Origin: a virus
Lineage: Duplodnaviria > Heunggongvirae > Uroviricota > Caudoviricetes
Length of the DNA: 11,265 nucleotides
IMG/VR virus record: IMGVR_UViG_2541047828_000001
Direction: 5' to 3' (one strand)
The notes under the pieces were generated by a model. That model saw only the letters and a list, made by a program, of their open reading frames with translations. It was not told the origin of the DNA and did not search any database. Shown piece after piece: positions 431 to 11,265 of the stretch. How positions within the stretch are numbered: the stretch's first letter is position 1; each line of letters starts with the position of its first letter. The position numbers and the translations under genes were made by a program.

Positions 431-1714
431 TTACAGACTTCTGGAAGGTTGCGCAGCTCTTACAACACGCGGTTGATCTTCCGCAGCGTCTTCCAGCGCA
501 CTTAAATCACGGTCTTTCACCTCTGGCATTTTCAGCGCAGAGATTAAACCAATTACTGAATATGCCATGATCATAATGGCGATCGGATACCAGGATTCCG
601 TCATGGTGCAGAAAATACCCGCCAGGATAGGACCAAAACCGGAAGCGATAAGACCACCAATTTCTTTAGAAATAGCCATCCGGGTAAAGCGGTTTTTACA
701 GCCGAACATTTCTGCCATGGTAATGTTTTCCAGAGCAAATAATCCCAGCACCGCACAGTTATGAATCACAATCAGTGCAACCATAATGGTGCTCGGGGCA
801 TAGCTTTTATCTACAATGATAGAAAGCATTGGCCATGCCAGCACAATCGCGGAGGTATTCATAATAATATACGGGATCCGGCGACCAATTTTATCGGATA
901 ACCAACCAAGGAACGGAATGGTCATAAAGCCGAGAATCGAACTAATCATCAATGCATCTGTTGGAATTGCTTTGTTAAACAATAACGTCTGCACTAAATA
1001 GCCTGCAAGGAAAGTCTGAATTAACCCGGAGTTACCCGCCTGACCAAAACGCAGCCCTGTTGCCAGCCAGAAGGATTTGCTCTGGAACATGCTACCAGCA
1101 GGTGCAGGTTTTGCTGTGGGTTGGTTGCTGTCATTAACCTTCTCAAAGACCGGGCTTTCTTTCAGATTCATACGTAACCAGATAGCAAAGACCATCACGA
1201 CAACGCTCGCCAGGAACGGTATACGCCATCCCCACGCCAGCAGTTCCTCTTTACTGAGAATGAAGAACATAAAGGCCCAGATTGCCGTTGCGCTCAAGGT
1301 TCCGCAGTTAGTTCCCATAGCTACAAATGAGGAGATAATTCCGCGCTTACCTTTTGGTGCATATTCCGCCAGCATCGTACCGGCACCGGAAATTTCCGCA
1401 CCTGCACCCAACCCCTGAATAATACGCAGCGTCACCAGCAAGATGGGGGCAAAAACACCAATCTGTGCATAGGTCGGTAACACACCAATTAAGGTGGTAC
1501 AGATCCCCATCATGGTGATGGTAATAAAGAGCACTTTTTTACGCCCTATTCTGTCGCCCATTTTGCCGAAAATAAATGCTCCGACAATACGCGCCACATA
1601 ACCTGCACCGTAGGTTCCCATTGCCAAAATTAACGCCATTGCCGTTGATGATTCAGGAAAAAATATTTCATGAAACACCAACGCTGCGCCGAGCGAATAT
1701 AACTGGAAATCCAT
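431..1714 (-). CDS. ydfJ: MFS transporter (metabolite:H+ symporter-like), 427 codons, lacking the normal N-terminal ~30 residues
   Basis: A 427-aa ORF with multiple hydrophobic segments and MFS-like motifs (GxLxDRxGRKK, GxxAEYAPxxKRG). The product starts MDFQLYSLGAALVFHEIFFP, i.e. inside the conserved (E/D)W(Y/F)DF..LYG motif that normally lies ~25-40 residues into MHS-family transporters. An in-frame TGA lies two codons upstream and there is no Shine-Dalgarno sequence. Confidence 0.8.
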   Translation of the reverse strand: MDFQLYSLGAALVFHEIFFPESSTAMALILAMGTYGAGYVARIVGAFIFGKMGDRIGRKKVLFITITMMGICTTLIGVLPTYAQIGVFAPILLVTLRIIQGLGAGAEISGAGTMLAEYAPKGKRGIISSFVAMGTNCGTLSATAIWAFMFFILSKEELLAWGWRIPFLASVVVMVFAIWLRMNLKESPVFEKVNDSNQPTAKPAPAGSMFQSKSFWLATGLRFGQAGNSGLIQTFLAGYLVQTLLFNKAIPTDALMISSILGFMTIPFLGWLSDKIGRRIPYIIMNTSAIVLAWPMLSIIVDKSYAPSTIMVALIVIHNCAVLGLFALENITMAEMFGCKNRFTRMAISKEIGGLIASGFGPILAGIFCTMTESWYPIAIMIMAYSVIGLISALKMPEVKDRDLSALEDAAEDQPRVVRAAQPSRSL

Positions 1715-2317
1715 AATTCACAGGTGTTTTTTCCCATCCTGTGGTTTCCTTGGCGTTTTCTAGGTTTTTTCAGATAGTTGCATTTTTTAAAAAGCATCCT
1801 AAGTTCGATCTCAGTGTCTATCTGGGGCCTATTTCTGTCCCATATATGCCCCAAAAAAACTCCCCAACAGATAAGTAGTTTTTTCATGGATTTATGCGTA
1901 AAATCAAGAACGGCTGGAAATCATTCAATACTCACACTATCGAAAAATTTACCAGCCAACCGCAGCACGTTCTTGCATAAGGCGTGTCTGCGGTTTTTCA
2001 ACTATTCAGATACATCACTCCCATCACATTCATTCCTCCGCATCAAAGGCATATAGGCTATATCACCTTGATATTTTTCTTTTTCAGATAAAAACTGTTA
2101 TCTATGTATACTTTTAAACCCAATCCGTGTAGAGTCTCTGCATAAGATAGTTTGCAGTTGCCGCTTCAGCTTGCGCCATAAACCGCCTGATTTTTGCTGC
2201 CACCTGTTAGCATTCCTGTATACCTGAAACGACAATGTTTATCTACGAACTTTAAGAACACCCAAGATAAAAATTGTCAACTATATCATATATAACACAT
2301 TACTAATTCGAGGCTAT

Positions 2318-2431
2318 ATGAACAGCATACTGATAATCACATCTCTCCTTATCATATTCAGCATTTTTAGTCATGCCCTAATAAAATTAGGGATTGGCAT
2401 ATCCAATAACCCAGACAAAACCGATGTATAA
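2318..2431 (+). CDS. Hypothetical 37-aa hydrophobic small protein ([37 protein letters not shown])
   Basis: ATG at 2318 with GAGG 4 nt upstream (2310-2313). Residues 3-28 are uniformly hydrophobic and the tail is polar. It ends 68 bp before the ydfK start on the same strand. Not in the ORF track because it is under 60 codons. Coding status is unproven. Confidence 0.3.
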
Positions 2432-2499
2432 GTCAACATATCCTGAATCAGACATACAATATCGCAATGAAAATCAATAATATTTTAAGGAATATCTTC

Positions 2500-2733
2500 A
2501 TGAAATCAAAAGACACCCTAAAGTGGTTCCCTGCGCAGCTTCCTGAAGTAAGAATTATCCTAGGGGATGCTGTAGTGGAAGTAGCAAAACAGGGAAGACC
2601 TATCAATACCAGAACATTGCTTGATTACATTGAAGGAAACATAAAGAAAAAATCATGGCTGGATAACAAAGAATTATTACAAACAGCGATATCAGTTCTT
2701 AAAGACAACCAAAATTTAAATGGCAAAATGTAA
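2500..2733 (+). CDS. ydfK: Small prophage protein of the YdfK/YnaE family (77 aa)
   Basis: ATG at 2500 is preceded by AAGGAA (2487-2492) with a 7-nt spacer. The ORF-track start at 2467 has no SD. The sequence MKSKDTLKWFPAQLPEVRIILGDAVVEVAKQGRPINTRTLLDYIEGNIKK is recognised from memory as the Qin/Rac YdfK/YnaE protein, and it sits between ydfJ and pin as in K-12. Confidence 0.8.
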   Translation: MKSKDTLKWFPAQLPEVRIILGDAVVEVAKQGRPINTRTLLDYIEGNIKKKSWLDNKELLQTAISVLKDNQNLNGKM

Positions 2734-3049
2734 TATAATAAACTTACTTTTTTATCATTTTTCCACTTTAACAACATTTTGCTCCACTTTTCCACGACCA
2801 AACAACTTGAAATCTGGTTAAAATAACACGCAACACTATTCTTCTTCCTTGAGTCCGCCCGGAACTCGAAAAACAAACCGAGTTAAAGCCATTTTTCACA
2901 AAATCGATTTTGGGTCTCACCAAAATTACGGGGTTGCATACGCATTCGTTTATTTTCGAACGTGTACATACAAATATGCACAAAAATAATCATAATTATT
3001 TTCTGAGATGCATTATGATATGAACACCAATTTCGTATAGAGTCTCACT

Positions 3050-3640
3050 ATGTCTCGAATTTTTGCTTACTGTCGGATATCAACGCTGGATCAGACCACC
3101 GAAAATCAACGCCGGGAAATCGAAAGTGCAGGTTTTAAAATCAAACCTCAGCAAATAATCGAAGAACACATTAGCGGCTCAGCAGCAACCAGTGAGCGTC
3201 CTGGTTTTAACCGGTTGCTTGCTCGCCTGAAATGTGGTGATCAATTGATTGTGACAAAACTGGATCGCCTTGGTTGTAATGCAATGGATATCAGGAAAAC
3301 AGTGGAACAACTGACCGAAACAGGTATCAGAGTGCATTGCTTAGCATTGGGTGGCATTGACCTGACCAGTCCAACAGGAAAAATGATGATGCAAGTAATT
3401 TCAGCAGTCGCTGAATTTGAACGAGACCTTTTACTTGAACGCACTCATTCCGGGATAGTAAGAGCCCGCGGCGCAGGGAAACGTTTTGGTCGACCACCTG
3501 TGTTAAATGAAGAACAGAAACAGGTGGTATTCGAACGAATTAAGTCAGGTGTAAGTATAAGTGCCATTGCCCGGGAATTCAAAACCTCGCGGCAAACCAT
3601 TTTAAGAGCCAAAGCAAAACTTCAGACACCTGACATATAA
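3050..3640 (+). CDS. pinQ: Pin-type serine recombinase / DNA invertase (196 aa)
   Basis: N-terminal YCRISTLDQ catalytic-serine motif (Ser11) with resolvase/invertase-fold motifs, and a C-terminal helix-turn-helix ([18 protein letters not shown]). Length and sequence match the Pin invertases of Rac and Qin from memory. The Q suffix is inferred from the ydfJ/ydfK context. Confidence 0.9.
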
Positions 3641-3737
3641 AAAATAATCTCGGTGTGAGATGCTTTACGTCTTCCAAGCCCCCTTCCTTGCCGTAAATGG
3701 AAAGATACATCTAATTATAGAATTTATATGTTTTACC

Positions 3738-3911
3738 CTACGGCAGTGCTGGCCATTCAATATCCGGTACTACTGATGTATTAACACGGTTCAGCAACAC
3801 CCGATACTTTTTCCAGACTTCTAGCAACGAAGTTTCTTCCTCCGTTGCGATTTCCAGCTCAACAACAGTCTGAACGTACCAGGAACAGCCTCCTTCAGGG
3901 CTTGAAGGATA
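3738..3911 (-). pseudogene. tfa: 3' relic of tail fibre assembly gene tfa (last ~45 codons, no start codon)
   Basis: The minus-strand frame continuing straight after the stf stop translates as [57 protein letters not shown]. From LEIAT onward it is near-identical to the C-terminus of lambda Tfa as I recall it ([39 protein letters not shown]). There is no Met or GTG start in this frame. The stop is at 3738-3740. Confidence 0.7.
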
Positions 3912-6900
3912 TCAATGTTCGCTTCCTGTTAACTGCCCGACAAGTGCAACCAGTTCGCTTACCTGATTTTCCAGAGTGCTGATCCGGGTGCCTGCTGTTG
4001 CCAGATTTTGACGTAGCGTTGTGTTTTCCTCTTCCAGCGCGGTAACGCGATCATCTGTTTCACGGGCGACCTGAACAAGTAAGCCCGTCACGGCGGCGTA
4101 GTCAACATTCAGATAACGTGTTTCTTCACGTAATTCATTGCCGTCAACCGTTGGTCCCTGCAACTCTTCACCGTAATGAGTAAACGATCCCACAGCTTCT
4201 GGTATCGCCTCCATTACTTCCTGTGCAATAACGCCAGCATAAGGCATCCCGTTTTCCCTGAGCGTGTAGGTGTATCCGTTCATTTTACGGATTGCTTTCG
4301 TCGCGTCGCTGATAACGAGAATATCGTCTTTAAGGTCGCGGTCTGATGACTGATTCAGCGTTGTGCAATTAATAGCGCCATTTACATCAAACAACTGGCC
4401 TGCTGACGTTTTTTGCGCATAAAACAGATACGCAGCAGACGTTCCAACCTCAAAAAAGTTTTGTCGAGTACTGGAACCCCACACCCTGACAGAAAACGGT
4501 AGTTCTGCATTACCTGAGTTCTGTAAAACAAAACGATTGCCAGTCCCTGATTGTTTTGTAAGGGTTAAATCAACAGTTGAGTTAACCTCATTCCTGTTGA
4601 TAGTGAGCGCCTGCGCTGTAGCCCCGTTAACAGCACCTGTTTTGAGTTGAACCGCGCCGTCATTACCATTTAACAGTATCTCAGCTCCGCTAAAGAAATT
4701 TTTTAGCGACAGCATCTTACTTACGCCGACTGATGAACCCAACGCCCACGCGAGAGAATTACCGGTGCTATCAAACCCACGTACAAAGCAATCCATTTTG
4801 CTATAGTCTGACGTGCTTCCAAGGACATCAATCCGCCCTCCGCCAGATTTTAACGGGTTAGATGTGGTTAATGACCTGACAGCAAGATCGGTGGATGAAT
4901 TTAGATCGTCTACTGTTAGTAATTTCTTCCATTCCTGCGTCGTTCCGTTTTCAACTGTTCTTCCCCAAAAACCGGAATTGCGGCCTCCGAACTGCACAGC
5001 ATAATTTTTACTAAATTGAACATGAATGCCGCCAAGAACCATAGAACCTGCCGGGCCGTTTGTACTGCCTGCGATTGGTCTAAATTTGTCGACGTTATCA
5101 GTATGCTGAGAGTTCCAGTCATGACCTGTTAATGTTGCGATTCCTGAGTTAGCTGTAATTAACCCAGACGCTTTAAGATTTTGCACATCAATTCTGTCGT
5201 TTGCGAAATTATATGCAATTGCGTTACTAACGCTTCCGGCATCATCATAATCGCGTTTCTGAATAAACCAGTCGCCAGCATTAGCAATGAGAGTATAAGT
5301 AGGCGTGTTAGCCGGGCGATCTGTTTCATTAAATCTTATTGCTGGGTTAGCGCTCCTTATTTGTAAAGGTTTTTCAACCGTTGATTTCAGTATCGCACTA
5401 TCTACAATTAAATTACCTTCTGAGTTAAGGTTTAGATATTTTGAAGCACCAGTTGAACCATCGTATGTAAACCTTATTGTTAATTGACCTGGCTCATTTG
5501 ATAAAGTCTCAACATACATATCAGCACCAAGACGCACAGTGCTGTCAGTTGCTAACAGTCTTGTATGGAGAATACCACTAGATGTGTATGTATTGGTCGA
5601 ATCACTATATCTATCAAGAAATAGACTGTTAAGTTGAGGGCTATTACTCCTGCCTAATCCAAGATTCGTTCTGGCACCATCAATAGTTGCCGCACCAGTA
5701 CCACCATGAGAAACATCAAGCGGTATCCATTTTTTTTGTGTGTCGCTGTAACACCCCCATGTTGATCCGGTTAAACCCAGGCGCATGGATTTATCATGGT
5801 TATATAACCATGTTTCGCTACTCCATTGGTCAAGACGGTCCACTTCATTTTTGCGAGCGTGGCGTGTCCATTGCGGGCCTATTGTCGGATTCCAGCGATA
5901 AGTATAAAGCGAGCGCGTAGCCCATCCCTGAAATACACCTGTATACGCTGGTGTTCCATCTACCTGACTAATAAACCCCGTAAGACTGCTTTCACCGGAT
6001 GCAATCGATGGAAAGCCTTTTGCATTACTCATAATGCGCATAAATCCGATATACCCTGATGGGTTGCCGGAAATATCAGGACAATCACGCGGTGCTGAGC
6101 CAAGACCGATATTATCGCCAACAATTAATTGCGCCTGGTTGCGATAATTAAGTGCGTCCGCCGCAGATTTCGCCGCGTTTGTTTCACTGGATTTAGCATT
6201 AGTTTCGCTGGCTTTAGCGTTGGTTTCGCTGCTCTTTGCTGCTGCCTCGCTATTTTTCGCGTTGGTTTCTGATTTTTTGGCTGCTGTCGCGGAGTTTGCC
6301 GATGCAGTTTGTGAGTCTGCTGCCGCCTGTGCGCTGTTATCCGCATTCGTCTCAGACGTTTTTGCGGCCTTCGCGGAATTTCCTGCCGCCGTTGCCGAGG
6401 AAGCTGCACTACTGGCACTTGATGATGCGTTCGTTTCTGATGATTTCGCTGCCTCTTTTGAGGCCGCCGCATCCCGGGCTGAGGTGGCAGCTTCTGACGC
6501 TTTCGTGGTCGCGGTGGATGCAGAAGTAGCTGCAGATTTTTGTGACGCTGCAGCATTCGTTTCTGACGTTTTCGCCGCACCGGCACTGGTGGCTGCCGCG
6601 CTTTTTGAGGACTCTGCAGCGGCAGCACTTTTTAATGCTTCAGTGGCCTTTGTTGATGCCGTTCCTGCGCTGGAAGATGCTGACTGAGCAGATGATGCAG
6701 CCTGTCCGGCTGACGTGCTGGCGGCACGTGCTGAGCCTGCGGCATCGGTTGCATGGGTTGCCGCCTCACAGGCAGATGTGCCGGCATCGCTGGCTGACTT
6801 CTTTGCGGCAGCCGTGTTCTGTGCCACTGCGGACGCGTTATGCGCCACCTCTTCCACCATCAGTTCAAAGCGGCGCAGTGCCTCCGGACGGGCATCATCC

Positions 6901-7184
6901 TCCGTCATGGCACCAAGAAAATCATTCAGCGTACCCGGTTGTGAGTCTTCATACACGGTGATGGTCCCGGCATGCGATGGCGGGAAGCCTTCCACCAACA
7001 GAATAACGCTGTACTGACCGTACTCAACGTCCATGCTGTAACGCCCGGCTTCATCCGGATTTTCTGAGGCCACCGTGTTCACCACCACCGTGGTGCTGTT
7101 ACGTTTTGCTTTCAGCTGGATTGTGCAGTTCTGTACCGGTTTACCTGCACCGTCTTTCAGTACACCTGAAATCTTTACTGCCAT
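3912..7184 (-). CDS. stf: Side tail fibre protein (~1090 aa) with a C-terminal intramolecular chaperone domain
   Basis: The N-terminus MAVKISGVLKDGAGKPVQNCTIQLKAKRNSTTVVVN matches lambda Stf from memory. The likely start is the ATG at 7182-7184 with GGGGTG upstream; the ORF-track start is a GTG two codons earlier. The stop is at 3912-3914. It follows lom in the lambda order J-lom-stf. Confidence 0.9.
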   Translation of the reverse strand: MAVKISGVLKDGAGKPVQNCTIQLKAKRNSTTVVVNTVASENPDEAGRYSMDVEYGQYSVILLVEGFPPSHAGTITVYEDSQPGTLNDFLGAMTEDDARPEALRRFELMVEEVAHNASAVAQNTAAAKKSASDAGTSACEAATHATDAAGSARAASTSAGQAASSAQSASSSAGTASTKATEALKSAAAAESSKSAAATSAGAAKTSETNAAASQKSAATSASTATTKASEAATSARDAAASKEAAKSSETNASSSASSAASSATAAGNSAKAAKTSETNADNSAQAAADSQTASANSATAAKKSETNAKNSEAAAKSSETNAKASETNAKSSETNAAKSAADALNYRNQAQLIVGDNIGLGSAPRDCPDISGNPSGYIGFMRIMSNAKGFPSIASGESSLTGFISQVDGTPAYTGVFQGWATRSLYTYRWNPTIGPQWTRHARKNEVDRLDQWSSETWLYNHDKSMRLGLTGSTWGCYSDTQKKWIPLDVSHGGTGAATIDGARTNLGLGRSNSPQLNSLFLDRYSDSTNTYTSSGILHTRLLATDSTVRLGADMYVETLSNEPGQLTIRFTYDGSTGASKYLNLNSEGNLIVDSAILKSTVEKPLQIRSANPAIRFNETDRPANTPTYTLIANAGDWFIQKRDYDDAGSVSNAIAYNFANDRIDVQNLKASGLITANSGIATLTGHDWNSQHTDNVDKFRPIAGSTNGPAGSMVLGGIHVQFSKNYAVQFGGRNSGFWGRTVENGTTQEWKKLLTVDDLNSSTDLAVRSLTTSNPLKSGGGRIDVLGSTSDYSKMDCFVRGFDSTGNSLAWALGSSVGVSKMLSLKNFFSGAEILLNGNDGAVQLKTGAVNGATAQALTINRNEVNSTVDLTLTKQSGTGNRFVLQNSGNAELPFSVRVWGSSTRQNFFEVGTSAAYLFYAQKTSAGQLFDVNGAINCTTLNQSSDRDLKDDILVISDATKAIRKMNGYTYTLRENGMPYAGVIAQEVMEAIPEAVGSFTHYGEELQGPTVDGNELREETRYLNVDYAAVTGLLVQVARETDDRVTALEEENTTLRQNLATAGTRISTLENQVSELVALVGQLTGSEH
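3915..4346 (-). other. Peptidase S74 / C-terminal intramolecular chaperone domain of stf (last ~144 codons)
   Basis: The C-terminal segment SDRDLKDDILVISDATKAIRKMNGYTYTLRENGMPYAGVIAQEVMEAIPEAVG fits the S74 chaperone signature (S-D-x-R-x-K ... Y ... G-x-IAQEV...P). It is followed by a heptad-like tail (RVTALEEENTTLRQNLATAGTRISTLENQVSELVALVGQL). Confidence 0.75.
6156..6839. repeat. Intragenic imperfect tandem repeats encoding the Ala/Ser/Thr-rich (K)SSETNA repeat region of Stf
   Basis: Protein residues ~118-345 are low-complexity with recurring KSSETNA, KTSETNA and SAATSA units. In the DNA this appears as reiterated gtttc/tttcgctg/gcggc motifs. This is a known feature of lambda-type Stf. Confidence 0.6.
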
Positions 7185-7190
7185 ATTCAC

Positions 7191-7222
7191 CCCACAAAAA
7201 AGCCCGCCTGAACCGGCGGGCT
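7191..7222 (-). terminator. Intrinsic terminator between lom and stf
   Basis: Minus strand reads AGCCCGCC-GGTTCA-GGCGGGCT followed by TTTTTTGTGGGG. The perfect 8-bp GC-rich stem is at plus 7201-7222 and the T-run overlaps the stf ribosome-binding site. Confidence 0.6.
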
Positions 7223-7248
7223 GTCATAACACTGTGTTACCTGGCTAA

Positions 7249-7848
7249 TCAGAACTTATAACCGACACCCACGATGAAACCGTCAGTGCGCCAGTCGCCA
7301 CTGCCGGAGCCTTCATAAGCAATATCAATGGCCACGGATTCGGTCGGGTTAAACTGCACGCCAGTCCCCCACGCCAGAGACGTGTTGCTGCGGCGACCGT
7401 CATCACTTCCGGTCAGCACTTCGTGCGTTTTCCCCTTGTTGTCAGTTACGCGGAGATAATCCCCGGAGAAAGTAGAAATACGGCTGTAAGCCACACCCGC
7501 CATCGCATACGCGCTGAACCATTCATTCACGCGCACAGACGGCCCCGCCATCACGCTGAACCAGCGGTTACGCACGGAATCTTCATGCCAGCGGGTATCG
7601 CTGTAATGAGTCAGCTGGCGATTCTTGTCTTCTGCATAGCTGAATGACGTCACCATCCCCAGCGTGTCCGTAAACTCATAACGGTATTTCACGTTAATCC
7701 CGTTAAGATCATCGCTGCCGGGAACGTTCGTCGAGGCATGAAGATACCCCGCGCTCAGCGAGGACTGATGTTCAGACGCCCATGCAGGCGCACCGGATAC
7801 GACCAGACAGATGGCTGCGGACAAAATGGCTGCACAAACTTTACGCAT
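7249..7848 (-). CDS. lom: Lom outer-membrane protein (Ail/Lom/PagC family), 199 aa
   Basis: MRKVCAAILSAAICLVVSGAPAWASEHQSSLSAGYLHASTN... has a signal peptide with AWA|SE cleavage-like site, is near-identical to lambda Lom from memory, and ends in the beta-barrel terminal YKF. GAGAGG lies upstream of the ATG at 7846-7848. Confidence 0.9.
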   Translation of the reverse strand: MRKVCAAILSAAICLVVSGAPAWASEHQSSLSAGYLHASTNVPGSDDLNGINVKYRYEFTDTLGMVTSFSYAEDKNRQLTHYSDTRWHEDSVRNRWFSVMAGPSVRVNEWFSAYAMAGVAYSRISTFSGDYLRVTDNKGKTHEVLTGSDDGRRSNTSLAWGTGVQFNPTESVAIDIAYEGSGSGDWRTDGFIVGVGYKF

Positions 7849-7869
7849 AATTACCTCTCGCTTTTCTGC

Positions 7870-7899
7870 AATAAAAAAGGCGTCATTCCTGACGCCCTT
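7870..7899 (-). terminator. Intrinsic terminator between J and lom
   Basis: Minus strand reads GGCGTCA-GGAA-TGACGCC followed by TTTTTTATT, immediately after the J stop at 7919-7921. Confidence 0.6.
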
Positions 7900-7918
7900 T
7901 ATTGGGGTTATAACAATT

Positions 7919-10900
7919 TCAACGAATACTGATACCGGAAGCAGCCTTTTTGGTCACAATCACCGTACAGTCGGTGATATTGCCTGCCCCCTGATTGCCT
8001 TTCTGGAAAATCTTAAACTCCAGAGTGACGCTTCCCCTGCCACTCGGCATATCAATAACCGCACTGTAACTACCGGGAATGGCCCCTTTAGTTTCTCTGG
8101 ATGCGATTAATACGCCGTTTTTGCGAACTTCAAAACCATACCCCGTGTACCTTGTACCTCCCGGGTTATCACCACTTCCCGGATCGTCATACGCTATACC
8201 GTTAAAGATAATGGGCGGAATAATGATTTGACGGTCAAAGTTATGATCATCGCTGATGGTGACTGTAACCGTCCCGTCTGGTGTTTCCGTATTACCCCAC
8301 GTACCAGCCTGTTTCGGGAATGATTTGGATACTGTTTTAACAAAATCACCTCTGACCTGATTCGCCTCCAGCATGCCCTTAATCGTACAGTTTTCATTTA
8401 TCGTGACGTTGTTGAGCGTCCCGGAGTTCGCATTCACACTGCCACTGATATCCGCATTTTTAGCGGTCAGCTTTCCGTCCGGTGTCAGGGAAAATACCGG
8501 TGGATTTCCACCACTGGTAATGGTGGGGGCCGTCAGACGTTTGAGGAACACGTCGTTCATGAATATCTGGTTGCCCTGCGCCACAAACATCGGCGTTTCA
8601 TTCCCGTTTGCCGGGTCAATAAACGCGATACGGTTAGCAGCAACCAGAAACTGGCTCAGTTTGCCTTCCTCTGTATCCTCCATGCTGAGGCCAAGCCCCG
8701 CGACATAATGTTTGCCGTCTTTGGTCTGCTCAATTTTGACGCCCCACATGGCATTCCATTTATCGTTGGCGTCTTTCCACTCTTTCGAAAACTCCTCCAG
8801 TCTGCTGGCGTTATCCTCCGTCAGGTCGACTTTTTCCAGCAGCTCCTTGCCGAGATGGGATTCGGTTATCTGGCCTTTGAAAAAATCCAGGTAACCTTCC
8901 GCATCATCGCTCGCCCGACCGACGGCCTCCACGAATGTCGATTTGCCAACGGTGTTCACACTGCGGATATAAAAGTAATAATCATGGCCCGGTTTGATAT
9001 TGATACTGGCGGCTATCCAGTACAGCGCCGTACCAAGATAGCGGGCTGTGGTTTCAACCTGCCTGATATCGGTAATCCGCTTTTCCGAGAACCAGAACTC
9101 AAACTGTACTGTCGGGTCATAAACGGCAAGATGCGGCGTGGCGGTTATCTGAAAATAGCCCGGCGTCAGCTCAATCCTCGACGGTGTTGCCGGTGCGGCA
9201 ATCCGGAACGATACCGACGCCGGATCGCCCTGCTGTCCCCACGCATTTACCGCCCGGACTGTCAGCGTGTAGTTCCCCAGCGCCAGTTGCGTGAAGCGGT
9301 ATGTGGTTTCCGTCGTCCGGGCCGTGCTGACCAGCCGCTCACTGCCGTCATCCGCTGCCACGGTCAGGCGAAGCATAAAGCTCACCCCCTTCACCACCTT
9401 CGGCGTGTCCCAGCGCGCCAGCACCTGATATTCCCCGCTGTCTGCGGTGACTTCGGCAGTCAGGTGCTGCACCGCTGGCGGCGTGACACCATTCACCGTG
9501 CCGCTCTGGTCGCCGTCAAAGTGCGCCCCGTTATCCACGATGGCCTCTTTTTCCGGTACATGCTGCACGGCGGTGATGGCATACGTGCCGTCATCGTTCT
9601 CACGGATACTCACGCAGCGGAACAGACGCTGGCGCAGCGTCGGCAGCTTCAGCCCCCATACGCTGTATCCGGCAACGCCGTCAGGAACACGGCTCACTTT
9701 TACCTTCACGCCGTCGGTGACGGACTGGACCTCCACGCTGACCGGATTGCCACTTCCGTCAACCAGGCTTATCAGCGTGGTACCGGAGGATGGCAGCGTG
9801 ATTTCACGGTCGAGCGTCAGCGTCCGGGTCTGGCTGTTCACCGCCAGCACGCGCCCGCCGGTGCTGATCCCCGCATAGTCATCATCGCAGATTTCAATAA
9901 CATCACCCGGCACATGGCGAAGCCCTTCGGCACCCACGCTGAAATCCACGGTCTGCGTCTCCAGCAGCTCCGTTTTAATCAGCCACAGCCCGGCGCGGTG
10001 TGCCTGCCCCCGGCAGGTACAGCCAAAGGCATCCATCTTCGTAACATTACGACCGTAACGGGCAATGGCCTGCGTATCTTCAACAAGCTCTGTCGCCGTC
10101 TCCCAGCCGTTGTTCGGGTCAATCCAGTTCACCTCAACGGCATTATGGCGGTCCTTCAGGGCGCTGAAGCTGTAGCGGAACGGCGCGCCATCATCCGGCA
10201 TCACCACATTACTGCGGTTATAGGTCCACACCTTATCCGACGGTCGGTCCTGCACGAACGTCAGCGTCTGCCCGTTCCATACCGGCATACAGCGCATCGC
10301 CGAGCAGAAATCACTGAGCACATCCCACGCCTTGCGCTGTGTGGTCAGGTACGCATTACAGGTGATGCGCGGCTCCGTGCCGCCAAAGCCGTCCGGCACT
10401 GACTGGTCGCAGTACTGGCCGATGACATACAGCGCCCATTTATCCACATCCGCCGCACCAAGACGTTTCCCCATGCCGTAGCGCGGATGGGTCAGCATAT
10501 CCCACAGACACCAGGCCATGTTGTTGCTGTATGCCGGTTTAAACGTTCCGTCCCAGATACCGCTGTATTGCCGCGTCTGCGGGTTATAATTCGACGGCAC
10601 CTGCAGAATACGCCCGCGCAGATGATAATTACGGCTCACCTGCTGGCTGCCGAACTGCTCCGAGTCCACCTGCACGCCGACCAGTGCCGTGTTCGGGTAG
10701 CACTGTTTCACATCGATGATTTCGGTGTATGACGACCAGAGCGTTTTGTTCTGCAGCTGGTCTGTGGTGCTGTCCGGCGTCATCCTGCGCATCCGGATAT
10801 TAAACGGGCGCGGCGGCAGGTTATCCACCACCACCGAGGCCAGATACTGCGACGTGGTTTTGCCCTTAATGGTGATGTCTTTTTCCGTCACCCAGCCACC

Positions 10901-11265
10901 ATTACGCTGTATCTGAACCAGCAGGCGGACTTCCGACGGATTCCGATCACCCTTTGAGGTGGTTTCCACCAGTGCCTGCACGCCGAAAGTAAAACGCAGA
11001 CGGTCAATGTTTGCCGACGTGATGGTCCGGGTGATCGGCGTGTCATATTTCACTTCCGTACCCAGCACCGTCTCGGAGCCGGAGGATTCAAATCCCTCCG
11101 GCGGTGTCTGCTCCTGCTCACCTGCCCGGAACACCACCGTGACGCCGGAGATATTGGTATTCCCCTCACTGTCCAGCACCGGCGTACTGTTCAGCAGCAC
11201 GCTTTTTAATCCATCCACCGGACCTTCAACCGGCCCTTCGCTGATGGCATCGATCACACTCAGCA
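7919..11265 (-). CDS. J: Tail tip / host-specificity protein J (central tail fibre), 5'-partial; ~20 N-terminal codons lie beyond the window end
   Basis: A 1112-codon frame that is essentially collinear with lambda J from memory ([28 protein letters not shown]...). The apparent start at 11257 is an internal GTG; the frame stays open to the window edge (..LSVIDAIS). The last ~150 residues diverge from lambda J. Confidence 0.9.

Follow-up and report, generated by a model that had tools for sequence, protein, structure and literature searches.

A lambda-type side tail fibre with a predicted S74 chaperone domain and a tfa remnant at the Qin-prophage locus of Escherichia coli

Introduction

Phage fibres that carry an S74 self-chaperone and fibres whose assembly is assisted by a Tfa protein are textbook alternatives. 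The S74/ICA domains of endoNF, T5 pb1, GA-1 gp12, S16 gp37 and MyRF are located at the C-terminus of a trimeric fibre, share the Ser-Lys dyad of an SDxxxK motif, a GxIAQE motif and a terminal coiled coil, and are released by autocleavage after folding. The stf-tfa loci of lambda, Rac and Qin encode a side tail fibre (Stf) with a characteristic N-terminal anchor, together with an intact Tfa of 191-194 aa whose start overlaps the stf stop. In Tfa proteins a conserved helical trimerisation domain is C-terminal, and fibre binding is the task of an N-terminal domain that is not conserved (PMC9608196). Within stf-tfa, lambda recombines with both Rac and Qin, and for one third of the sequenced lambda-Rac recombinants the right-hand junction is in tfa (PMC3945230).

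Here we describe an 11,265-nucleotide stretch of DNA (IMG/VR record IMGVR_UViG_2541047828_000001; hereafter the window) in which elements of both systems are found together. The locus corresponds to that of the Qin prophage in E. coli and belongs to a lambda-like prophage. It shares with the lambda, Rac and Qin loci the Stf N-terminal anchor, the slot between lom and pinQ, the last ~45 tfa codons and the downstream sequence, but has a different distal fibre and no intact tfa. The C-terminal domain of the fibre has the position, dyad motif, GxIAQE motif and coiled coil listed above for S74/ICA domains, here assigned from sequence and found on a lambda-type side tail fibre, and its autocleavage is predicted. 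The same combination is present in phage mEp460, whose Stf (YP_007112094.1; PHROG 6578) has a lambda Stf N-terminus, an S74 C-terminus and an identical stop-spacer-remnant junction. The exchanges described by De Paepe et al. 2014 (PMC3945230) are similar in that they affect the stf-tfa region in Rac and Qin and place junctions inside tfa; those experiments used marked Tfa-type alleles in the laboratory, whereas the tip at the locus described here is S74-type and our evidence is comparative. Our literature search found no paper on S74-type lambdoid Stf proteins or on tfa remnants.

Results

A lambda-type side tail fibre with a replaced distal part

The fibre gene and its parts, all on the minus strand, are as follows.

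3912-7190, minus strand: stf, side tail fibre gene (ORF list, translation, PGAP annotation)
6343-7190, minus strand: conserved lambda-type Stf N-terminal part, phage_tail_N plus Ala/Ser/Thr-rich shaft (Pfam, colinearity with PhiR42_1)
4347-6342, minus strand: distal shaft and receptor-binding tip specific to the cassette, residues ~284-948 (absent from PhiR42_1)
3915-4346, minus strand: putative Peptidase_S74 intramolecular chaperone/autocleavage domain, residues 949-1092 (PF13884, alignment with 6f45)

The stf open reading frame encodes 1092 aa counted from a GTG at 7188-7190 to the TGA stop at 3912-3914; PGAP prefers the ATG at 7182-7184 and so a protein of 1090 aa. The PGAP protein for the identical sequence is WP_115200346.1, labelled 'prophage tail fiber N-terminal domain and S74 family endopeptidase-containing protein', and the product is also matched by PHROG 6578, while an NCBIfam search returned no family match for either Stf or the tfa remnant. 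The gene order J, lom, stf and the phage_tail_N anchor (Pfam PF08400, residues 3-136, E 1.1e-71) identify the product as a lambda-type Stf. For many lambdoid phages the match is limited to the N-terminal part (6343-7190), and BLASTP comparison with StfR was uninformative owing to the low-complexity shaft.

The distal part of the gene is shared with mEp460, and segment 4347-6342 matches the Stf of that phage in blocks of 86-96% identity. The two proteins are 96% identical over the first 512 residues and nearly identical over the last ~300, but they differ in the middle of the shaft (residues ~513-670), and the mEp460 protein is 110 aa longer. A T4 gp34-like domain is located directly before Ser949 (4uxe, E 2.5e-8), and residues ~284-948 are predicted to constitute the end of the mature fibre after cleavage.

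The C-terminal domain

The first-pass annotation of this DNA had proposed that the last ~144 residues of Stf carry an S74 signature, with a predicted cut site about as far from the C-terminus, and the sequence agrees with both. Peptidase_S74 (PF13884) matches residues 949-1000 (E 1.9e-12, 47.7 bits against a cut-off of 22), and the motif SDRDLK starts at Ser949 (codon at 4344-4346) and ends at Lys954 (codon at 4329-4331), such that a cut before Ser949 leaves 144 residues with a computed mass of 15.8 kDa. The domain occupies the extreme C-terminus of the 1092-aa fibre, includes a GVIAQEV motif, and ends in a coiled coil, with coiled-coil profile matches at 1049-1090. It aligns with the solved chaperone domain of S16 gp37 (6f45) across SSDRxxKxDI...AGxIAQEV, which places SDRDLK opposite SSDRRIKKDI, and the Ser949/Lys954 spacing is the same as that of the endoNF (S911/K916) and MyRF (S587/K592) dyads (PMC8326128).

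Structure prediction adds little to this picture. An AlphaFold2 monomer model of the last 342 aa, built from a shallow alignment of 20 sequences for a protein expected to be an obligate trimer, has a mean pLDDT of 50.7 and a pTM of 0.26; its highest-confidence part is a long C-terminal helix at model residues 281-341 (means of 54-80 over 10-residue blocks). Because the model is poor, support for the S74 fold comes from sequence alone, and at that level the Stf C-terminus is assigned as an S74 intramolecular chaperone with a catalytic-dyad motif. Autocleavage at NQS|SDRDLK would be expected by analogy with the family. An S74-tipped Stf of this type should likewise fold independently of Tfa. Lambda side tail fibres are not required for plaque formation, and the viability of mEp460 is therefore no proof that such a fibre assembles.

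A tfa remnant behind a 37-nt spacer

Between the end of stf and pinQ there are three features on the minus strand.

3875-3911, minus strand: 37-nt spacer of non-tfa origin (alignment, folding)
3738-3874, minus strand: tfa remnant, last ~45 codons plus the TAG stop at 3738-3740 (Caudo_TAP profile, tfaQ alignment, PGAP)
3640-3661, minus strand: weak hairpin resembling a terminator, ATCTCACACCGAGAT and then a T-run (read by eye, folded at -4 kcal/mol)

The first-pass annotation had also reported a start-less end of tfa in frame with stf and immediately beyond its stop. Its identification as tfa was borne out by comparison with known tfa genes: it matches positions 87-130 of the 131 in Caudo_TAP (PF02413; E 8.5e-18), it can be aligned with the Tfa proteins of lambda, Qin and Rac, and 34 of its last 45 residues are identical to those of K-12 TfaQ. 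The length of ~45 codons and the shared frame are likewise as described, but the remnant does not follow immediately, the 37-nt spacer being interposed. At the nucleotide level, segment 3000-3874 is 97.4% identical to the K-12 sequence from pinQ to the 3' end of tfaQ, and the homology to tfaQ stops at 3874, although protein-level similarity to Tfa may reach ~3884. A complete tfa gene has a start, an N-terminal domain and ~190 aa; here ~146 codons are missing from the 5' side, leaving part of the conserved C-terminal helical domain and no start codon. The ORF list contains no ATG-, GTG- or TTG-opened frame of at least 40 aa in the remnant frame, and PGAP annotates 3738-3863 as a pseudogene, 'tail fiber assembly protein, missing N-terminus'. 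The recovery of the 4.3-kb region from five complete genomes at 99.7-100% identity rules out an assembly artefact.

The spacer contains a hairpin (CCTTCAAGCCCTGAAGG, 3892-3908, -8.3 kcal/mol by folding) that begins 3 nt past the stf stop and overlaps a Shine-Dalgarno-like motif, AAGGAGG, at 3889-3895, after which there is no start codon. A Shine-Dalgarno-like motif of this strength directly upstream of the remnant is an observation that counts against the remnant being inert. Among 41 distinct copies the spacer region has only two polymorphic sites in 40 nt. The ATCTCACACCGAGAT hairpin downstream of the remnant is also present after the intact tfaQ of K-12; a consensus scan of the stf-pinQ interval found no terminator, and while ATCTCACACCGAGAT fails that scan it may nonetheless act as one.

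A probable cassette exchange at the Qin locus

Comparison with PhiR42_1, a Tfa-dependent sister phage, delimits the difference clearly. The two are colinear at 1950-3874 and at 6343-11265 (93% identity from 6343 onward), and only 3875-6342 differs, giving cassette borders at 3874/3875 and 6342/6343. The right-hand crossover maps within the remnant.

3766-3782, minus strand: right-hand crossover zone, inside the remnant (SNP pattern)

There are three mismatches to K-12 Qin in 3000-3765 and 20 in 3766-3874, against six mismatches to mEp460 in 3783-4456; on this SNP pattern, 3766-3782 is read as the switch from Qin-backbone-like to mEp460-like cassette sequence. The first-pass annotation had interpreted the locus as the scar of a cassette exchange with its crossover in the conserved 3' end of tfa, and the clean replacement relative to PhiR42_1 and the position of the switch agree with this. 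The truncation of tfa, however, neither happened locally nor was itself a crossover in conserved sequence, being an older junction that was imported ready-made.

Nucleotide diversity is low in a core made up of the spacer and the final 150 nt of the chaperone-domain sequence (pi ~0.02), and is 0.075-0.145 in the flanks. The C-terminal tails of the remnants (PALP, PAVPVME, PTNPVRE, PVAPIG, PEEPDTV and others) are alleles of intact tfa open reading frames, while the allele in the window, NTSVVP, occurs only in remnants in the sample examined. We set aside a dN/dS-type test on remnant-specific substitutions, which was confounded by tfa recombination and had too few remnant-private changes to work with.

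Distribution of the junction

Of 5426 complete E. coli genomes, 804 carry the stop-spacer-remnant junction, at 1382 places altogether (93-100% identity). The cultured phages mEp460, Ayreon and PhiR70_1 have an identical junction, as do 50 IMG/VR contigs. All 50 of the IMG/VR matches carry the remnant, and in none is the spacer followed by an intact or longer tfa. The exact 28-base junction pattern gave no match outside E. coli among GTDB species representatives, a looser pattern having been rejected as swamped by chance matches. What follows the remnant varies, with dinI and int downstream of it in mEp460 and pinQ in the window.

The remnant frame is open in about 50 of 52 copies, and in frame with stf. 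An intact in-frame remnant could hint at constraint, and the import of pre-selected tfa alleles explains it equally well. The first-pass annotation had noted the shared frame, but this detail has no weight: the copies all descend from one ancestral junction, and the agreement in frame is thus a single one-in-three event. PhiR63_1 and 2G7b have an independent junction between S74 and tfa sequences, at which the tfa part lies in a different frame and behind a blocking stop. Truncation of tfa to its 3' end is seen in at least five further independent cases, some of them beside cargo genes. Where short pieces of the tfa 3' end occur in E. coli prophages, they are recurrent scars of recombination and not genes, and the joining of the stop and spacer to tfa codon ~147 is a single illegitimate junction of older date, which arrived at this locus already formed.

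Discussion

The account that we favor, and which we judge to be probably correct, is that this is a self-chaperoning Stf followed by an inert tfa remnant of single origin, which doubles as the right homology arm of a unit spread by recombination. The distal two-thirds of Stf would belong to the self-chaperoning class, with the S74 domain nucleating folding of the trimer and then cutting itself off before Ser949 by means of the Ser949/Lys954 dyad, to yield a mature fibre of ~99 kDa and a 15.8-kDa fragment. With a self-chaperoning tip of this kind a separate Tfa is expected to be unnecessary. The remnant would have arisen once, when the end of an S74 fibre gene and 37 nt of its own downstream sequence were joined illegitimately to tfa at codon ~147, and the resulting unit of S74 tip, spacer and tfa remnant would then have spread through E. 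coli lambdoid prophages by homologous recombination, with the conserved 5' part of stf as the left arm and the conserved 3' end of tfa, plus whatever lies beyond it, as the right arm. In the Qin-type prophage described here, the unit would have taken the place of the distal part of stf and of ~146 codons at the start of tfa, its right crossover falling inside the remnant. The recombination pathway and the lack of translation of the remnant are both inferred.

Two other histories of the junction can be considered. Were tfa to have been deleted within this prophage once an S74 fibre had made it redundant, the locus would be in keeping with the decayed remnant that the Qin locus represents in K-12, and deletions do occur here, as seen in a variant (L038) in which lom is joined straight to the spacer; nonetheless, the recurrence of the junction, base for base, in cultured phages and at all 1382 places in the 804 genomes, and the absence, among the 50 IMG/VR matches, of any spacer copy with a longer tfa behind it, render such local decay extremely improbable. 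Tail-fibre switches worked by invertases are well known, as in Mu G, P1 C and e14 P with Gin, Cin and Pin, where two inverted crossover sites of 26 bp flank alternative cassettes of fibre tip and tfa, and the neighboring gene invites the question of whether a serine invertase made the junction or moves the cassette through gix/hix-type sites.

3050-3640, plus strand: pinQ, Gin/Hin/Pin-type serine recombinase gene, convergent with stf (Resolvase and HTH_7 domains, PGAP name)

The gene is only 98 bp from the remnant, and invertase-driven exchange of tail-fibre genes has been proposed in the literature (PMC3945230). Against this, a window-wide scan for the crossover-site consensus at up to three mismatches gave no match, the sole half-site match being far off at 1140, although degenerate sites could escape such a scan. 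There is no inverted alternative fibre cassette and there are no long inverted repeats, and mEp460 and Ayreon have the junction with no adjacent pin gene in the regions displayed. We find the involvement of PinQ scarcely credible, and treat pinQ as context, a role for it in the junction not being demonstrable.

The inertness of the remnant can be challenged in two ways, through translation or through RNA. Read-through of the UGA or re-initiation could add or make a Tfa C-terminal trimerisation helix, for which one could cite the frame shared with stf, the hairpin 3 nt past the stop, the AAGGAGG upstream and the frame that is open in nearly all copies, as well as the existence elsewhere of short open reading frames with a Tfa C-terminus and a real ATG (PHROG 2341; L071, L107 and L120). 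However, no canonical start codon follows AAGGAGG, both polymorphic spacer sites are non-synonymous in the remnant frame, the independent junction type is neither in frame nor free of a blocking stop, and the remnant has no fibre-binding N-terminal domain; the open frame is accounted for by the import of alleles from intact tfa, and translation strikes us as highly improbable. Much the same can be said of retention as an RNA, be it the element 'IS009' of Rfam or a small RNA whose source is the stf 3' UTR. Rfam RF02111 (IS009) does match at 3772-3972 with E 1e-19, and the 320-nt region folds somewhat better than shuffled sequences (z -2.2), but at 85.5 bits the match falls short of the gathering score (117), and true homology is confined to the 3' half of the model. 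In intact tfa the complete IS009 model lies within coding sequence (218-221 bits in tfaQ, tfaR and lambda tfa), so that the family may be merely conserved coding DNA, and the only paper that we found leaves IS009 out as being within genes (PMC5331693). Conservation as an RNA is thus a most doubtful proposition. The broader claim that the remnant is not inert, acting in cis or in trans, whether as an IS009-related sRNA or as a UGA read-through extension of the chaperone domain, we still hold to be very unlikely.

The arrangement is common and already annotated, with the protein and the pseudo-tfa in RefSeq and the protein type in PHROGs, and the usual exchange of modules among phages accounts for it. 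For phage engineering, it offers S74-tipped lambda Stf modules with natural, well-defined borders, at stf codon ~283 on the left and in the last ~45 tfa codons on the right, and these modules should not need co-expressed Tfa. For annotators, we note that the Rfam 'IS009' model largely detects a conserved tfa coding segment.

Gene order at the Qin end

The window represents the Qin-prophage end of an E. coli chromosome, and its 3000-7300 segment is 99.7-100% identical to FDAARGOS_1058 and four other complete genomes. The features are arranged as follows.

431-1714, minus strand: ydfJ', MFS transporter gene
between ydfJ' and pinQ: ynfT and ydfK
3050-3640, plus strand: pinQ, 196 aa, Resolvase and HTH_7 domains
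3738-3874, minus strand: tfa remnant, between pinQ and stf
3912-7190, minus strand: stf, 1092 aa
7249-7848, minus strand: lom
7919-11257, minus strand: J

The ydfJ annotation records an N-terminal truncation caused by the prophage insertion, like that at the K-12 Qin boundary. The NCBI pipeline names stf a 'prophage tail fiber N-terminal domain and S74 family endopeptidase-containing protein' (WP_115200346.1) and treats 3738-3863 as a pseudogene ('tail fiber assembly protein, missing N-terminus'). This type of Stf is already known from RefSeq, PHROG 6578 and the cultured phage mEp460, which encodes the same protein type, and in other coliphages a separate Tfa has been described as alternating with an intramolecular chaperone (PMC11990801); an S74-ended Stf with a tfa remnant is an ordinary feature that has been annotated before.

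A predicted self-chaperoning side tail fibre

Stf is 1092 aa long with a GTG start (1090 aa with the ATG used by PGAP) and carries phage_tail_N at residues 3-136 (Pfam, E 1.1e-71). The S74 signature that the first-pass annotation recognised at its C-terminus is borne out by a Pfam match to Peptidase_S74 at residues 949-1000 (E 1.9e-12, 47.7 bits; cut-off 22). Its SDRDLK motif runs from Ser949 (4344-4346) to Lys954 (4329-4331), the same spacing as in the catalytic dyads of endoNF (S911/K916) and MyRF (S587/K592) (PMC8326128), and in a sequence search of the PDB it aligns, over SSDRxxKxDI and AGxIAQEV, to the phage S16 gp37 chaperone domain (6f45). By every sequence-level measure Stf is an S74 family member, and it is a predicted self-chaperoning fibre of the endosialidase, T5 pb1 and S16 gp37 class. 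The predicted autocleavage would release exactly 144 residues (15.8 kDa), in line with the approximate length first proposed, from a mature fibre of 948 aa (98.8 kDa); a structure model of this end was of poor quality.

The domain directly before the cleavage serine (residues ~895-948, 4350-4500) resembles a domain that recurs in gp34, the proximal long-tail-fibre protein of T4 (4uxe, 5nxf; E ~3e-8), and relatives bear the annotation 'pyocin knob domain-containing S74 family peptidase'. Within the Ala/Ser/Thr-rich shaft, at 6259-6578, there are four copies of a repeat spaced at 84 nt (28 codons) with 73-100% identity, which may be a source of the length variation among relatives (roughly 830-1370 aa).

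The tfa remnant

Beyond its TGA the stf frame stays open for 57 codons before a TAG, and residues 14-57 of this frame match the Caudo_TAP profile at positions 87-130/131 (E 8.5e-18); the last 45 residues are identical to TfaQ at 34 of 45 positions. Neither the ORF list nor the translation of the window offers a usable start codon in this frame, and the start-less tfa relic described initially is thus confirmed. It does share the stf frame, but it does not lie immediately after the stop as proposed: the two are separated by a spacer of 37 nt (3875-3911) that has another origin and holds a Shine-Dalgarno-like AAGGAGG as well as a hairpin of 7 bp. In Tfa the C-terminal helical trimerisation domain is conserved and the variable N-terminal domain binds the fibre (PMC9608196); the remnant keeps the former and lacks the latter, which fits both the strong DNA conservation of the segment and a remnant unable to chaperone.

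A single junction, widely shared

Similarity to K-12 Qin extends across 3000-3874 and no further, while mEp460 matches from 3752 across the entire S74 end, as do the cultured phages Ayreon and PhiR70_1; the stop, hairpin, AAGGAGG and tfa entry point are identical in all four aligned sequences. With a 191-bp junction probe, 804 of 5426 complete E. coli genomes give matches, at 1382 places in all and with 93-100% identity, downstream of fibres named either as S74 or as 'pyocin knob' proteins; an exact-pattern search of species-representative genomes of other taxa did not find the junction. The spacer runs on into the remnant in 50 of 50 spacer-bearing IMG/VR contigs, with a longer tfa behind it in none. 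The fibres joined to it are some 830 to 1370 aa long, and all that are long enough to score have the 144-aa S74 end except L038, an stf deletion. In this contig (reverse strand, ~3700-3900) the whole of stf is lost and a truncated lom (~window 7685) is fused straight to spacer and remnant.

That genomes, phages and contigs have this junction in common points to a one-time illegitimate join that truncated tfa and was afterwards inherited and spread. It rules out a local tfa deletion at this locus and, together with the presence of the same region in five complete genomes, an assembly artefact. Because all copies come from one junction, the shared frame of stf and remnant, noted earlier, amounts to a single one-in-three coincidence and carries no meaning; at an independent junction type, in phages PhiR63_1 and 2G7b, tfa resumes at the equivalent of window 3861 and the remnant is in another frame and blocked by a stop. 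We have seen no evidence in these sequences that the remnant is translated. Its open frame is kept in nearly all copies, but this can be accounted for if the alleles were imported from intact tfa genes, where selection had acted on them, and both polymorphic spacer sites are non-synonymous in the remnant frame.

Exchange of the cassette

The cultured lambdoid phage PhiR42_1 has the ordinary stf-tfa-pinQ order, and the window is colinear with it over 1950-3874 (98.8%) and 6343-11265 (93-95%). The sole dissimilar segment, 3875-6342, replaces distal stf and the first ~146 tfa codons. The original suggestion of a cassette exchange was therefore right in substance, although the scar arrived ready-made and was not formed here. 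There are 3 mismatches to K-12 Qin in 3000-3765 and 20 in 3766-3874, with 6 to mEp460 in 3783-4456, a pattern that places the switch from backbone to cassette at ~3766-3782, within the remnant. Diversity among 41 distinct copies is low (pi ~0.02) in a core made up of the spacer and the final 150 nt of the chaperone domain, and higher on either side, in the remnant (pi 0.075-0.145) and the upstream chaperone sequence (pi ~0.1). The remnants have at least eight distinct C-terminal tails, with the same alleles in intact tfa ORFs. A remnant that still recombines with intact tfa genes would be expected to give such a pattern, and would thereby act as a right-hand homology arm. There is laboratory precedent: lambda takes up Rac and Qin DNA through homologous recombination in stf-tfa, and one third of sequenced lambda-Rac recombinants have their right-hand junction in tfa (PMC3945230).

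Exchange mediated by PinQ is very unlikely. The window contains no gix/hix-like site at up to 3 mismatches (one half-site lies at 1140) and no inverted second cassette, and the displayed mEp460 and Ayreon regions have the junction without a neighbouring pin gene. The pinQ gene itself is intact and 99.6% conserved relative to K-12, with neither detectable recombination sites nor an invertible segment in the window. An RNA element, Rfam IS009 (RF02111), is also very unlikely: its match at 3772-3972 (minus strand) scores 85.5 bits against a gathering score of 117. Within the intact genes tfaQ, tfaR and lambda tfa the same model reaches 218-221 bits, so that IS009 in essence amounts to conserved coding sequence from the 3′ part of tfa. 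The family may owe its existence to that coding sequence and not be an RNA gene; the sole literature found left it out as lying within genes (PMC5331693). Matches in comparison loci are at these positions.

L003 6345-6543: IS009 match
L060 5755-5953: IS009 match
L059 3417-3615: IS009 match

tfa 3′ ends as module boundaries

A survey of tfa 3′ ends at about 165 loci shows at least five additional kinds of truncated or hybrid end, with breakpoints at roughly codons 140 to 160. At two loci a class I SAM-dependent methyltransferase gene lies on the opposite strand between two directly repeated tfa 3′ fragments.

L012 12062-13300: methyltransferase cargo flanked by tfa 3′ ends
L007 (phage 2G7b) 1401-2620: methyltransferase cargo flanked by tfa 3′ ends

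The arrangement suggests that tfa 3′ ends serve as boundaries for the insertion or exchange of cargo genes; given also the recurrent remnants, the conserved tfa 3′ end would seem to be a place where modules of these prophages generally meet.

PhiR63_1 (L006 2572-4239) and 2G7b (L007 2618-4285) show a second S74-tip architecture in lambdoid phages. There the fibre is divided among Stf (~790 aa), a 93-aa ORF and a protein of its own for the S74 domain (346 aa); next come a ~97-aa ORF with a hydrophobic end and a tfa remnant that breaks at another point. Three IMG/VR contigs (L071, L107, L120) contain an ORF of ~88 aa that has a genuine ATG, beginning MLPQHSDIEIAWYASIQQEPNGWKTVTTQFYIQEFSEHIAPLQ and ending in the conserved Tfa C-terminal domain. 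This ORF may be a 'mini-Tfa', and from its length it may correspond to the 88-position family PHROG 2341, which the window remnant matches.
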